Source: Polynucleobacter sp.
GTDB taxonomy: Bacteria; Pseudomonadota; Gammaproteobacteria; Burkholderiales; Burkholderiaceae
Direction of reading: 5' to 3'
NCBI GenBank assembly: GCA_024642065.1
Contig: JAHEBW010000033.1
Span: 1-25,953, forward strand
DNA length: 25,953 nt
The notes beneath the pieces were generated by a model. That model was given only the letters and a program-made list of their open reading frames with translations. It was not told the DNA's origin and searched no databases. Below, in pieces: positions 11,001 to 15,061 of the stretch (position 1 is its first letter; every line of letters begins with the position of its first letter). The translations under genes and the position numbers were made by a program.

Positions 11001-11038
11001 ACAAAGTATCGCTTTTTACGTTGTTTCCTATACCCCTT
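11001..11038 (+). repeat. Degenerate copy (g) of the island repeat family
   Basis: acaaagtatcgctttttacgttgtttcctatacccc shares AAAGT, GCTTTTTAC and CCTATACC blocks with copies a-c, roughly 24 of 37 positions with indels. Confidence 0.3.
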
Positions 11039-11173
11039 TTGATTAAGCGTTCGTATATGTAGATACGTATTGAGATGGGGCTAACAAAAATTGTGTCATA
11101 AAACACTCCTAAAAATTAGCCCTAAATGGGCAAATATATTTTATCTATTTTGAACTGCTTATACAATTAATAT

Positions 11174-11761
11174 ATGCCTAAATTAAATGACACGCACTTA
11201 CCAGAACGACTGAAGGAAGCAATCAAGCAGTTAGAAGAAGGTAAGGAAGTTGAAGCAAAGAAAAATAAAACGCTACTGAATGCTAAACAACAGCAAGCAT
11301 TGGTAGATGCGTGGGATAAACAACAAGAACTACGCAAACAGCATAAGCCACCTAAGACAGAAGAAGAAAAGAAAAAGATAGGTTGGAAAGACAAGCGTGA
11401 AGTGCGTCTTGATATCTACAAGCAAGCACACAAAGAATTAATGGATAACATTTTTGATATTCATTTAAGGCAGCTTGAGCGTGAAGAAGCTAAGGCAAAT
11501 AGAGTTTATTTAAAAGGCTACTTCAGTGCTAAAGATGGACAAGATCCTGATAGTGTTGGAAAAATAGCTTTGGCTAGAGCTGGTTTTATGGTTGCTCGTC
11601 ATCCAAAAATGTCTAAACGAGATAGAGAAATAATGGAATTAGAAGACGGACTGCGGAAGAGATTTGAAGCTGAAATGACTGATGAAGAACGAGAAGAGCG
11701 AGAGTGGCTTAAGGAAATTGAGAAGGCGGAAGAAGAAGGGCGAAAGAATAGGTTTAAGTAA
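11174..11761 (+). CDS. Hypothetical, highly charged (Lys/Glu-rich) protein
   Basis: 195-aa ORF with a coherent charged, probably helical composition. I recognise no family. The last four codons and the stop lie inside repeat e. Confidence 0.6.
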   Translation: MPKLNDTHLPERLKEAIKQLEEGKEVEAKKNKTLLNAKQQQALVDAWDKQQELRKQHKPPKTEEEKKKIGWKDKREVRLDIYKQAHKELMDNIFDIHLRQLEREEAKANRVYLKGYFSAKDGQDPDSVGKIALARAGFMVARHPKMSKRDREIMELEDGLRKRFEAEMTDEEREEREWLKEIEKAEEEGRKNRFK

Positions 11762-11775
11762 AAGCAGACTTTTTA
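11745..11775 (-). repeat. Island repeat copy e (reverse orientation)
   Basis: The reverse complement TAAAAAGTCTGCTTTTACTTAAACCTATTCT has its first 18 nt identical to copy c. Confidence 0.8.
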
Positions 11776-11791
11776 AAGGTTGTGAAGTGTA

Positions 11792-11824
11792 TAAAAAACC
11801 TGCTTTTTAATAAACCCTATACCT
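11792..11824 (+). repeat. Island repeat copy a (forward); left terminal inverted repeat of module 2
   Basis: TAAAAAACCTGCTTTTTAATAAACCCTATACCT matches the reverse complement of 13444-13476 at 31 of 33 positions. Confidence 0.85.
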
Positions 11825-11865
11825 TGCCACCCCTAAAGCCCTATCTGTATTGGCTTTGAAGGCTA

Positions 11866-12435
11866 TTAAACCAATTCAACAGCACGCCTTTTAATTTCAT
11901 CATTAGTGTCTATATAAATCATTGTTGTATTGATTGATTTATGTCCAGCCAAACTTGCTAACACTCTTACGCCTACACCCTTATTTGCTAAGTTCGTAAT
12001 GAATGTTCTTCTGCCACTGTGTGATGACGCAGAACTAATGCCTGCCTTCTTGTATAACCAAAAGAACCACTGTGTTAGTGTGTTGGCATTAAAGCCTTCT
12101 CTCTTTTCCGTATAAAAAAGTGGTTGATGTTTGTCTTTAATTCGTCTGTTGCGTAAGTAGTTGTCTAGTTCTGTCCGTAGCTTTTCATTCACAAATACCA
12201 CTCTACCTACATTGCCTTTTGTTTGATTGGCACTTAGTCTTATTTCATTTCTAATAGTACCGTCTTCGTTTTGTACATCACTGATAGTTAAGCTAGCTAT
12301 TTCACCTACACGCATACCGCTATAAAAACTTGTTAGCAGTAATGTTCTATTTCTAATAGCGTATCTGTGTTTGGTTGCGATATAACGCAGTACTTGATCA
12401 ATTTCATTTTGTGTCAGTGTTTTTGCTTGTGCCAT
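11866..12435 (-). CDS. Compact tyrosine recombinase (catalytic domain only; FimB/FimE-sized)
   Basis: About 189 aa from the ATG at 12435, with a GAGGG RBS 7 nt upstream. Motifs: SGMRVGEIASL (Arg I), TKGNVGRVVFV (beta-hairpin Lys), HSGRRTF (H-x-x-R) and GHKSINTTMIYID (His/Tyr). The track's TTG start at 12534 seems less likely. Confidence 0.85.
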   Translation of the reverse strand: MAQAKTLTQNEIDQVLRYIATKHRYAIRNRTLLLTSFYSGMRVGEIASLTISDVQNEDGTIRNEIRLSANQTKGNVGRVVFVNEKLRTELDNYLRNRRIKDKHQPLFYTEKREGFNANTLTQWFFWLYKKAGISSASSHSGRRTFITNLANKGVGVRVLASLAGHKSINTTMIYIDTNDEIKRRAVELV

Positions 12436-12577
12436 TTTTAGTCCCTCATCAAATAATTTGTTGTTGTTATTGTGTTTTCTTTTATGTCTTATTCCTACCT
12501 CTTTGTGTCTTTGTAAATCTCTTCCAATATTCAATGACTTAGCTAAAAGAACAAAGAAACTAGCAATTTTCTTTGGT

Positions 12578-12615
12578 TAAAAAGTCTGCTTTTTAATAAA
12601 CCCCTATCTAATAAC
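12578..12615 (+). repeat. Island repeat copy b (forward)
   Basis: TAAAAAGTCTGCTTTTTAATAAACCCCTATCTAATAAC has its first 16 nt identical to copy c and shares the CTAATAAC tail. Confidence 0.8.
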
Positions 12616-12905
12616 GTCTATAAGCTGTTTGTGTGCTTAAGTAGTACTCACATAGCGTATTGCTTGAAATTTCAGCTTATACAGCTGATTTGATGTGTTG
12701 CTATTTGTTTAGCTGAAGTACTTATCGTTTTGAAGTGGTGATTTTTGACCTACTACCTAATTTTTAAGCATCACTTAAGTAATACTTAATAGCAATCAAC
12801 TGCGTTGCTTGCTGTGCTTTCATAAAAGCTATCGCTTTTATTCAGCACATTTTTTCTTCTTTAATTTTTTTAATTTATCTTTTTAAGAACTTTACTAGGA
12901 AGCAC

Positions 12906-12935
12906 AAGCCACGCTTGTTTAGTTAAGCGTGGCTT
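12906..12935. repeat. Perfect 11-bp inverted repeat (hairpin) in the ORF-poor segment
   Basis: AAGCCACGCTT (12906-12916), an 8-nt loop, then AAGCGTGGCTT (12925-12935). It lies immediately downstream of a very AT-rich tract (about 12835-12895). No clear T-run follows on either strand. Confidence 0.6.
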
Positions 12936-13476: not shown

Positions 13477-13481
13477 GTGGT

Positions 13482-13520
13482 TAAAAAGTCTGCTTTTACA
13501 TAAACCTATACCTAATAACC
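13482..13520 (+). repeat. Island repeat copy c (forward)
   Basis: TAAAAAGTCTGCTTTTACATAAACCTATACCTAATAACC is separated from copy d by only 5 nt. It ends 15 nt before the ATG of the next ORF. Confidence 0.85.
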
Positions 13521-13535
13521 TAAAAGGAGTGGTAG

Positions 13536-13976
13536 ATGAGTACATTGGACACACTAAAGCTAGTAGCTGTTAAAAAGCCTACACATACACCTACAGTAGT
13601 AATACGCAGACAAAAGCTAGCAAGTAAGGTTTGGGAACAGATACAGCTAGCCAAAAGTCAAATTGAAGGCACGCAGTTTGTAGTCAAAAAGTTTCGTAGC
13701 TTTACAGATAAGGAAAGTGGCTTACGCAAACAAGTTGAAATCCCTAAACGCATACGCGAATGGTGGTTTAAAAATGAGCAAGGTAAGGTTTGTGTTGCTA
13801 TCAAATACGGCACTAGAGTATTAGAGTTGGCAAAAGGCAAACACAGCATTGAAGTGGCTAGTGCTGATGATTTGATTAAAGCACTTGAACTAGTCAAGCA
13901 AGCAGTGGAACTAGGAGAACTTGATACTCAGCTAGAGCAAGCAAGTGTTGGTGTTAGAAAAAGTTTTAAGAAATAA
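13536..13976 (+). CDS. Hypothetical protein (146 aa)
   Basis: AAGGAG RBS 8 nt upstream of the ATG. The sequence is non-repetitive and protein-like (LKLVAVKKPTHTP...IPKRIREWWFKNEQGKVCVAIKYGTRVLELAKGK). It vaguely resembles small conserved proteins of proteobacterial mobile elements, but I cannot name a family. Confidence 0.7.
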   Translation: MSTLDTLKLVAVKKPTHTPTVVIRRQKLASKVWEQIQLAKSQIEGTQFVVKKFRSFTDKESGLRKQVEIPKRIREWWFKNEQGKVCVAIKYGTRVLELAKGKHSIEVASADDLIKALELVKQAVELGELDTQLEQASVGVRKSFKK

Positions 13977-13977
13977 A

Positions 13978-14244
13978 TTAGCAACTATCGCTTGAGACGT
14001 TATATTGAATAATGATTCCTCTGCTATTAGTTGTAAATGTTTTTCTACAAGGCTGACTAAAAAGATCATAGCCACCAGTCCAGGTATAACTTGCTCCGCC
14101 ATTTGAAAGTTTGATGGCGGCGTTTGGAGCTCCCCATCTTGTTATTACCTGATCAATATGATGTCCAGTGTATTTTTTCATTTCTGTGGATGCACAACCA
14201 CTCAATGCTAAAACTAAAATCACCACTTTGATATATTTAAACAT
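13978..14244 (-). CDS. Small lipoprotein (88 aa)
   Basis: Signal peptide with lipobox: MFKYIKVVILVLALSGC. Its start overlaps the stop of the upstream ORF by 1 nt (TAATG on the minus strand). Confidence 0.65.
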   Translation of the reverse strand: MFKYIKVVILVLALSGCASTEMKKYTGHHIDQVITRWGAPNAAIKLSNGGASYTWTGGYDLFSQPCRKTFTTNSRGIIIQYNVSSDSC

Positions 14245-14468
14245 TATTTACTCACTATGTATGTATTGTGATTATCTGTTTTTATTTCATTAAACTTTAT
14301 TTTTTTAAATCCACCTTCAAGTACAACCTTTTTAAATCTTTTACCAAAGCTTGTTGGAGAATTAATTAGATGCCATTGATCCCCTAACATATCTTTCAAT
14401 TGATAAACTCCAGCATTTAATTTATCAATACTGGTGGAGAGAATTTTTATTTCTTTGTTTGAGAGCAT
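14244..14468 (-). CDS. Hypothetical protein (74 aa), translationally coupled to the lipoprotein gene
   Basis: The ORF has 1-nt stop/start overlap with 13978-14244. An AT-rich divergent spacer (14469-14519) lies upstream. Confidence 0.55.
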   Translation of the reverse strand: MLSNKEIKILSTSIDKLNAGVYQLKDMLGDQWHLINSPTSFGKRFKKVVLEGGFKKIKFNEIKTDNHNTYIVSK

Positions 14469-14519
14469 TAAAAATTTACTTATAAAGTTTATTAACTAAC
14501 TATAGCACTAAATATTTGT

Positions 14520-14855
14520 ATGAACAAATATATCGCTCGTGTGCGTGTGCTAGGACAGTCAGTCAATACCTATGTCTTTGCTGATAGTGCGATACACGCA
14601 CGACTACTTATTCAATATCAGTTTGGTATGAATAGCTTGTTAAGCAGTCCCTTGCTAGCAGAAGGTGATGTTAATGGTTATAGATTGCTTGATGAGGTAG
14701 TCAAAGCATTCAAATCACTTACTCCTCAACGACAGCGTATCAAGTCTCTTCAAACGCAGAAGGACAATGTCAGCAAACAGTTGAAAGCTGAACGCGATAG
14801 ACAGAAGATACAAAAAGCACAGCAGACAATTCAGTCTGTTATCTATAAAAAGTAG
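14520..14855 (+). CDS. Hypothetical protein (111 aa) with a basic coiled C-terminal half
   Basis: The ORF is divergent from 14244-14468. I recognise no family. Confidence 0.5.
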   Translation: MNKYIARVRVLGQSVNTYVFADSAIHARLLIQYQFGMNSLLSSPLLAEGDVNGYRLLDEVVKAFKSLTPQRQRIKSLQTQKDNVSKQLKAERDRQKIQKAQQTIQSVIYKK

Positions 14856-15027
14856 CTATACAGTTTTTCAAACACTAACTACTTTTTCCTAACCCCACTT
14901 GATTTTTAACCACTGTCTAAACTAAGAAAGCCGTCATTTGATTCAAATTCAATAGGTTTTTGGTGGTTTTCATAAAGTTTTTAGTTTTATTGCTGTGGGG
15001 ATGAGAGGCATAGCTGAGATGCCTTTT

Positions 15028-15061
15028 AGATAGTAGGTTTATGTAAAAGCAGGATTTTTTA
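15028..15061 (-). repeat. Island repeat copy f (reverse)
   Basis: The reverse complement TAAAAAATCCTGCTTTTACATAAACCTACTATCT shares 15 nt (TTTTACATAAACCTA) identically with copy c. Confidence 0.8.

Follow-up and report, generated by a model that had tools for sequence, protein, structure and literature searches.

A short asymmetric repeat defines unit boundaries in a family of small integrative elements from Polynucleobacter

We analyzed a 25,953-nucleotide stretch of Polynucleobacter sp. DNA (assembly GCA_024642065.1, contig JAHEBW010000033.1, positions 1 to 25,953; hereafter, the window), which harbors a small island carrying short repeats in alternating orientation. The island is an integrative element of ~5.8 kb (about 9456–15234) located within the anticodon loop of a tRNA-CAT gene and bounded by a 70-bp direct repeat (9386–9455 and 15165–15234). 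The repeat family is real, specific to the element, and under selection, and its motif marks where one gene unit ends and the next begins in a widespread family of such small elements. The organisms that carry the closest relatives likewise point to a Polynucleobacter host.

The left attachment repeat, attL (9386–9455, + strand), consists of the 3' end of rpoD and the 5' half of tRNA-CAT as far as the anticodon loop. It is near-identical to the right attachment repeat, attR (15165–15234, +), and relatives integrated at the same site, L009 for instance, carry the same repeat (relatives are designated by L numbers). AttR overlaps the 5' half of the intact tRNA gene with anticodon CAT (15196–15272, +), the integration target. 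The insertion site lies directly downstream of rpoD, and the element brings its own rpoD 3' end and tRNA 5' half, so that the duplicated part is the 5' side of the gene. From left to right, the element encodes a 361-amino-acid integrase of the phage type (9752–10837, +; Pfam PF00589 and PF14659; PHROG 1, integrase), with homologues at the same end of every related element; p195 (11174–11761, +), a charged, all-helical protein; a 189-amino-acid tyrosine recombinase comprising the catalytic domain only (11866–12435, −; PF00589); a conserved noncoding region (12896–13382, +); a 146-amino-acid DUF6641 protein (13536–13976, +; PF20346); a variable cargo segment (13978–14468, −), here an 88-amino-acid open reading frame (ORF) with a lipoprotein-like signal sequence, as judged by eye, and a DUF1413 protein, its place being taken by other genes in relatives; and the small protein p111 (14520–14855, +), the C-terminal part of which is kept downstream of DUF6641 in all lineages. 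Between integrase and p195 lies a lineage-specific 336-bp insert (10838–11173), 0% aligned in L008–L035 and found only in L049–L052, which belong to the same sub-lineage.

Six motif copies punctuate this layout. A scan of both strands of the window with the 24-nt pattern AAAAAGYCTGCTTTTWMWTAAACC, allowing at most one mismatch, returned matches only at 11751–11774 (−), 11793–11816 (+), 12579–12602 (+), 13452–13475 (−), 13483–13506 (+), and 15036–15059 (−), compared with a chance expectation of 0.01 matches; six were reached in 0 of 100 shuffles. A weight matrix trained solely on the copies of relatives scored the same six, designated e, a, b, d, c, and f, at 40–46 bits and every other window position at 0 or below. 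Both scans thus bear out the six copies and coordinates listed in an initial annotation of this DNA, as well as its remark that the 20 kb of flanking chromosome contain none. The degenerate seventh copy, g (11001–11038), which that annotation had added, is rejected: it scores −33 bits (rank 695), is unmatched even at up to 4 mismatches, and falls within the 336-bp insert restricted to the sub-lineage of the window. The first of the three inverted-repeat-bounded modules proposed there is therefore left without its left repeat, whereas the alternating orientation and the bracketing of gene units hold.

The consensus of 83 distinct instances reads AAAAA-NY-CTGC(T/G)TTT-NNN-TAAACC, followed by (C)TATAYCT, so that a single copy is an asymmetric motif of ~33 bp (AAAAA-NY-CTGCTTTT-NNN-TAAACC-(C)TATAYCT). 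Four of the six copies form two tail-to-tail pairs, in which the A-runs face a spacer of about 5–18 nt. Junction J1 consists of copy e (11745–11775, −), the backbone-side arm, which holds the final codons of p195 and has an orthologous position in relatives, and copy a (11792–11824, +), the inner arm. Junction J2 consists of copy d (13444–13476, −), the inner arm, and copy c (13482–13520, +), the backbone-side arm, 30 nt upstream of the DUF6641 start codon. Together, J1 and J2 bracket a unit composed of the small recombinase and the conserved noncoding region. The other two copies stand alone: b (12578–12615, +), 143 nt upstream of the small-recombinase start codon, and f (15028–15061, −), 104 nt inside attR, with orthologous copies in relatives. 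The arms are related as the initial annotation had grouped them: complementarity is 94% over 33 nt (31/33) for a and d and 97% over 29 nt for e and c, and b and c are 84% identical over 49 nt, e, b, and c being alike in their GTCTGC. Across elements whose genes diverge by 10–35%, copy a is 97–100% and copy d 97% conserved.

The distribution of the motif was assessed by a genome-wide scan of one reference genome per species for 185,579 species. Only eight stretches were found, so the motif is not a genome-wide repeat; six of the eight are in Polynucleobacter or in one metagenome-assembled genome (MAG) of Oxalobacteraceae. Element genes are present at the Polynucleobacter and Oxalobacteraceae stretches, the remaining stretches, L002 and L005, lying outside that check. 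The chromosomal flanks of L009, L010, and L040 contain no copies, and a scan of viral contigs gave 0 matches. The novelty of the family, also claimed initially, is supported by searches of Rfam, which gave no match at the repeats or in the noncoding region at the gathering threshold or at E ≤ 1, and by literature searches, which found no publication describing the element, its repeats, or DUF6641.

We compared the window with genome and metagenome contigs retrieved through the recombinase, DUF6641, and p195 proteins. The relatives share a common backbone, integrase (+), p195 (+), e|a, recombinase (−), b, noncoding region, d|c, DUF6641 (+), cargo, p111, f, and attachment site, which occurs at several integration sites with motif copies at orthologous positions throughout. 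All full elements have the same six positions occupied, and differences in cargo are not bounded by motif copies. Both tail-to-tail pairs are universal; copy b is absent where a divergent recombinase clade (53–59% identity) occupies the unit, and two genomes have a third pair between cargo and p111. All 32 distinct close pairs are in the (−)(+) arrangement and none in (+)(−), and the spacer measures 6–8 nt in 19 of the 32, ranging up to 18 nt. In the Oxalobacteraceae MAG (L006; 4860–5160 and 6101–6400), there are tandem 242-nt repeats that each end with a tRNA 3' half and open with a copy of the motif, intact in one repeat and decayed in the other, which suggests tandemly integrated elements at another tRNA site. 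The family is plentiful in Polynucleobacter genomes as well as in freshwater metagenomes, where its diversity is high: hundreds of distinct variants exist of each of the recombinase, DUF6641, and p195, with 67–98% identity among the best 120 matches for each. Almost all of these variants are on contigs of 1–5 kb, the element fragmenting assemblies.

Sister lineages share the small recombinase, DUF6641, which is conserved together with the recombinase even in distant element lineages, and the p111 tail, and each has its own near-perfect palindrome family in three to six copies. These palindromes, located mostly at convergent gene ends or just past stop codons, are GTGTCGTG-N5-CACGACAC, present six times, in L046 (2395–8471); AGCGTAAAAAWWTTTTACGCT in L026 (3059–9217); AATGTTGTTTTAAACAACATT in L022 (603–4365); and GCACGGTTTTTTKACGCTTA in L025 (2580–6408). 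In L046–L048, the recombinase lies on the same strand as the integrase. The motif tracks the element backbone, including p195, with which it co-occurs, and not the recombinase: it is kept where the recombinase is only 53–59% identical, and unrelated palindromes are found where the recombinase is 64–74% identical. The search of other genomes with the consensus, a check that the initial annotation had put forward to ask whether copies accompany recombinase homologues, thus confines the motif to the element family but does not tie it to recombinase similarity.

The noncoding part of the J1–J2 unit is conserved in its own right. Between the recombinase and DUF6641, ~830 bp contain no ORF longer than 68 amino acids. 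A stretch of ~450 nt (12890 to ~13350), likewise free of longer ORFs on either strand, is 73–99% identical across elements, including those in which recombinase identity is as low as 53%. RNAalifold predicted 137 pairs on the + strand. Compensatory changes occur in 19 of these, compared with 7.8 ± 2.0 in column shuffles (19 was reached in 0 of 500) and 0–7 in slid-partner controls. Indels are not multiples of three, and many invariant G.U pairs favor the + strand. The region 12896–13382 (+), with its best-supported core at ~12906–13332, is thus a candidate for a large structured RNA of a new kind, here carried on a small integrative element. Base pairing of this RNA with the motif was considered and rejected (z scores −0.06 to −1.2).

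The initial annotation had put the repeats forward as a candidate for a new multi-inversion or cassette-exchange system. About 30 contigs and genomes spanning the recombinase and a neighboring gene are all colinear and in the same orientation, and none of them is inverted, deleted, or joined as a circle at the repeats. Among the 32 distinct pairs, neither d|a, expected of a circle, nor e|c, expected of an empty site, occurs (0 of each). A scan of the metagenome collection for chimeric junctions joining the left side of a, b, or c to the right side of d gave 0, with only 11 native d sites and hence low power. Where elements are truncated, the break falls within the noncoding region or at the stop codon of the recombinase and spares the repeats. 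One contig, L037 (4273–5067), contains an inverted second copy of d|c–DUF6641; the join lies within the noncoding region, where a 9-nt inverted repeat, ATAGGCTGT, is found. Its halves match different strains and the join is not at a motif copy; we read it as a probable assembly chimera or template switch and reject it as a case of site-specific recombination.

The elements are nevertheless mosaic. L036 and L029 are 88–96% identical in integrase, p195, and DUF6641 and have unrelated a-to-d interiors, the swapped segment leaving out a and d themselves. L030 and the window are 96–100% identical between e and d, compared with 75% in p195 and 89% in DUF6641; differences between L010 and L014 are confined to the part right of c; and L049 and L050 are identical to window positions 9990–11831, with mismatches starting 8 nt past a. 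Judged from such alignments, the units between the junctions have been reassorted in evolution, and the mosaicism is real. The resolved crossover intervals lie mostly 8–110 nt outside the core (a +8, a +45, d −35, c +30, b −45 to −110 nt), and one falls in a 55-nt interval that spans d and the spacer and runs into the start of c. A crossover in L012 initially placed inside b was dropped because informative sites put it 45–110 nt to the left of b. Most of the maximum-chi-square breakpoints located at e|a reflect nothing more than the faster evolution of p195 relative to the rest of the element. Crossovers beside the cores match homologous exchange within conserved junction blocks and do not single out site-specific recombination. 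The comparison of orthologous islands, a check put forward in the initial annotation, thus recovers a reassortment of units, without changes of order and with breakpoints mostly beside the repeat cores. A new multi-inversion or cassette-exchange system is not supported by the comparative data, which leave room for one.

We hypothesize that the motif copies are sequence-specific boundary or transcription-barrier sites that double as hotspots for homologous exchange of units, a reading that we adopt tentatively, as possible but somewhat short of probable. The copies would be cis-acting boundary sites that punctuate transcription between units. On RNA, each pair (A5-GCAGGU-U5...loop...A5-GUCUGC, then U4-5) would have the layout of a two-way intrinsic terminator, and each arm would additionally be recognized by a sequence-specific factor, which would explain both the sequence conservation beyond pairing and the retention of lone arms. 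As a side effect, related elements would exchange units by homologous recombination at these sites, the best conserved DNA in the element, and at their short flanks. The anatomy, the conservation, the confinement to one element family, the colinearity, and the mosaicism are observed; that the copies act as a barrier, and that some factor binds them, we infer from what follows.

Every copy closes a gene unit and faces that unit, in an orientation fixed relative to transcription. Copy e overlaps the p195 stop codon; opposite it stands a, downstream of the convergent recombinase gene. The d|c pair separates the 3' end of the conserved RNA region from the start codon of DUF6641, and f comes after the last gene and before the attachment site. 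Spacers that vary from 6 to 18 nt are more readily explained by two independent arms, or by a hairpin loop, than by a single recombinase core. As the initial annotation had noted for these imperfect palindromes, e|a and d|c can form hairpins: folding of the pairs gives long stems (z scores −1.8 to −5.3) with conserved internal loops at the variable positions. In their inner part (A5-GCAGGT-T5 ... loop ... A5-GTCTGC-T4-5), G.U pairs make the stem continuous on the transcript leaving the a–d unit in about 20 of 26 pairs, and each such continuous stem is followed by a U run. The palindromes at gene ends in the sister lineages are a parallel. The near-identity of a and d across elements, the lack of rearrangement in the ~30 contigs, and crossover intervals close to the core but mostly outside it also speak for this reading.

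Several observations weigh against this reading. Stability of the inner hairpins is low (−5 to −14 kcal/mol), with loops as long as 17–18 nt in some pairs. A consensus scan for promoters and terminators was empty at the repeats, with totals not above those of shuffles, and the palindromes of L046, L022, and L026 lack following T runs. A hairpin leaves the outer blocks TAAACC and TATAYCT and the lone copies b and f unexplained; given these and the 97–100% conservation of a and d, a sequence-specific factor is therefore needed. Fold and family searches found no candidate for such a factor among the element proteins. For p195, there was no match in Pfam, NCBIfam, PHROG, or PADLOC; its AlphaFold model (predicted local distance difference test score, pLDDT, 77), composed entirely of helices, matched no PDB fold, and a profile search against PDB sequences was likewise empty. 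The DUF6641 model was unusable (pLDDT 50), and its profile search against PDB sequences gave no match. The strand bias in G.U pairs is largely inherited by descent and does not represent many independent events.

Two known arrangements come close to the proposed one. Like repetitive extragenic palindromes and bacterial interspersed mosaic elements (REP/BIME) and two-way intrinsic terminators, the copies are palindromic units in alternating orientation at gene ends, with an A-run, stem-loop, and T-run. They differ from REP/BIME in that they are not genome-wide, are accompanied by no REP-associated tyrosine transposase (RAYT) gene, form weak stems, and conserve the sequence itself. As for intrinsic terminators, the inner stem GCAGGU-U5 ... 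A5-GUCUGC followed by U4-5 is present, but at the low stability given above, and the consensus scan called none. The stoperators of mycobacteriophages L5 and Bxb1 are asymmetric sites, located in short gaps between genes, at which a repressor halts elongation in one orientation. The motif copies resemble them as multiple asymmetric, element-specific intergenic sites oriented against approaching transcription; unlike stoperators, they are 33 bp rather than 13 bp long, number six rather than about 30, and have no repressor identified among the element proteins.

A second reading, which we regard as doubtful though it deserves serious weight, is that the copies are target sites of the 189-amino-acid recombinase. 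As stated in the initial annotation, a small tyrosine recombinase does lie next to the repeats. PF00589 spans residues 6–179 of 189 (E 1.6e-31), all catalytic residues, as read from the translation, are retained, and the enzyme is kept in every lineage of the element family. It lacks the N-terminal DNA-clamping domain, which counts against the reading, and scores far below the curated cut-offs for XerC/D, integron integrases (TIGR02249, 51.8 bits, cut-off 265; NF011946, 33.7, cut-off 435), and FimB/E-type invertases (NF007370, 47.5 bits, cut-off 221; NF007371, 26.2, cut-off 222). We found 6,727 homologues; those on Legionella conjugative plasmids, at 43% identity, are located 2–3 kb from parAB, a genomic context that hints at a plain multimer-resolution role and likewise counts against the reading. 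The recombinase stop codon (window 11866) is a recurrent insertion and breakpoint site: cargo consisting of an outer-membrane beta-barrel gene and an ORF is inserted exactly there in L009 (3825–5139), L029 (2148–3430), and L008, the truncated element L041 (about 2157–2463) breaks there, and in L006, 93-bp copies of the recombinase 3' end (2637–2729 and 4219–4311) flank a 1.5-kb insert.

The recombinase-site reading can be framed in two ways. Each copy could be a small core, with TAAAAA, a 6-bp asymmetric center NYCTGC, and TTTTTA; or each tail-to-tail pair could be a full site with long inverted arms around a mostly 6–8-bp spacer. In the latter version, the recombinase–RNA unit would be an integrated cassette, an attP-like d|a recombining with an attB-like e|c to yield e|a and d|c, or, alternatively, units would be swapped between elements by paired crossovers at two mutually non-recombining sites. 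The presence of copies immediately past the 3' end of the recombinase gene, and of others in front of it, is in keeping with either version, the resemblance of a to d and of e to c is as expected of attL and attR, and 19 of the 32 pairs have the 6–8-nt spacer. The sites of three sister lineages are readable as 7-7-7 palindromes with A/T-rich centers, like simple recombinase cores. Reassortment of inter-junction units (L036 vs L029, L030 vs the window, L010 vs L014) and the single crossover within the 55-nt interval point the same way. Set against this are the absence of any inversion, deletion, circle junction, or empty site in the ~30 colinear contigs or 32 pair types, and of chimeric junctions in the low-powered metagenome scan; the e|a and d|c spacers, which differ from each other and reach 18 nt; the L036 swap, which excludes a and d; the crossover intervals, mostly outside the core; and the persistence of the motif at lower recombinase identity than that at which unrelated palindromes appear.

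The pdif modules of Acinetobacter plasmids are gene modules bounded by XerC/XerD sites in alternating orientation. As in pdif modules, short sites in alternating orientation delimit units that are reassorted between related replicons, here the J1–J2 unit and the segment to the right of J2, and the mechanism of movement is deduced from comparisons, although the crossovers lie mostly beside the cores and not within them. In contrast to pdif, the 33-bp asymmetric motif shows no resemblance to the 11-6-11 dif consensus and the 83-instance consensus has no dif-like arms, each junction has two arms so that adjacent units share no single site, and the neighboring recombinase is a catalytic-domain-only protein far below the XerC/XerD cut-offs. 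A resemblance to a XerD arm in c and f (9/10 match) was rejected because it falls on variable positions, and resemblances to sites for integration host factor (IHF) or Fis, judged by eye, were not convincing.

Integron attC sites are likewise imperfect palindromes of 70–85 bp with a variable center beside a tyrosine recombinase, homogeneous within a lineage and differing between lineages without tracking recombinase similarity, and with conserved mismatched stem positions. The junctions differ from attC in lacking the R''/R' GTTRRRY boxes and in having outer blocks of reversed polarity (5'-GGTTTA ... TAAACC-3'), and the system differs from integrons in the score of its recombinase, in having genes in both orientations, no attI, and no variation in cassette number at the sites. 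The fim switches, with FimB/FimE of ~200 amino acids, also combine a small recombinase devoid of an N-terminal domain with an adjacent or enclosing inverted-repeat segment (here a/d, 31/33), but in the element a single orientation is ever seen, the recombinase is far below the invertase cut-off, and the repeats are 33 bp rather than 9 bp. Unlike shufflons of the Rci/sfx type, the colinear contigs show no permuted or inverted segments at the repeats, and chimeric junctions are absent from the metagenome scan.

A more specific form of site-specific exchange appears unlikely to us: the pairs would be sites of a catalytic-domain-only recombinase that inserts or swaps whole units, its own gene and the large structured RNA included, amounting to cassette exchange nested in a minimal 6-kb element. 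The sites would be recognized partly by shape, because their sequences differ between lineages without tracking the enzyme.

Less likely again is that the copies are operators of an element-encoded regulator akin to an immunity repressor or a global regulator, through which promoters for the recombinase, the noncoding RNA, and the DUF6641 operon would be controlled, with no role in termination or recombination. Conservation of the sequence itself beyond structure would fit such sites, as would lineage-specific motif sequences, which are expected of co-evolving repressor–operator pairs, and the co-occurrence of the motif with p195 and the RNA. The closely similar b and c each lie upstream of a co-oriented unit (the RNA region for b; DUF6641, at 30 nt, for c). 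On the other hand, four of the six copies (e, a, d, and f) are at gene 3' ends and not at promoters, no sigma-70-like promoter is predicted at any copy, and no recognizable DNA-binding fold was found in the element proteins, p195 and DUF6641 included, the DUF6641 model being unusable. That the copies are inert relics kept by descent, left over as terminal inverted repeats and as pieces of the target when insertions once nested in one another, is highly improbable: the nested order e(−) a(+) ... d(−) c(+) does resemble an element inserted in an element, but the near-identity of a and d beside coding DNA that diverges by 10–35%, and the retention of copy positions across species and integration sites, indicate purifying selection.

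Elsewhere in the locus, the rpoD gene next to the integration site encodes an 852-amino-acid product with an N-terminal extension of ~150–170 amino acids (window 6851–7400) made of lysine-, alanine-, and proline-rich repeats. The DNA of the extension contains an 84-nt tandem repeat with strong AT skew, and the extension resembles a histone H1-like tail. PADLOC returned no defence-system match for the element, and a search of the island DNA against plasmids gave no match.

Polynucleobacter species are among the most abundant freshwater bacteria, and the small element described here turns up very often, and in a great many forms, in lake metagenomes. An understanding of how the limits of its units are set would help to explain the modularity of minimal islands and their uptake of cargo. 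If the copies were recombinase targets, the element would amount to a compact, naturally occurring system for cassette exchange that relies on a 189-amino-acid enzyme. Independently of the repeats, the ~450-nt noncoding region, with its covariation-supported fold and no match in Rfam, merits study in its own right.

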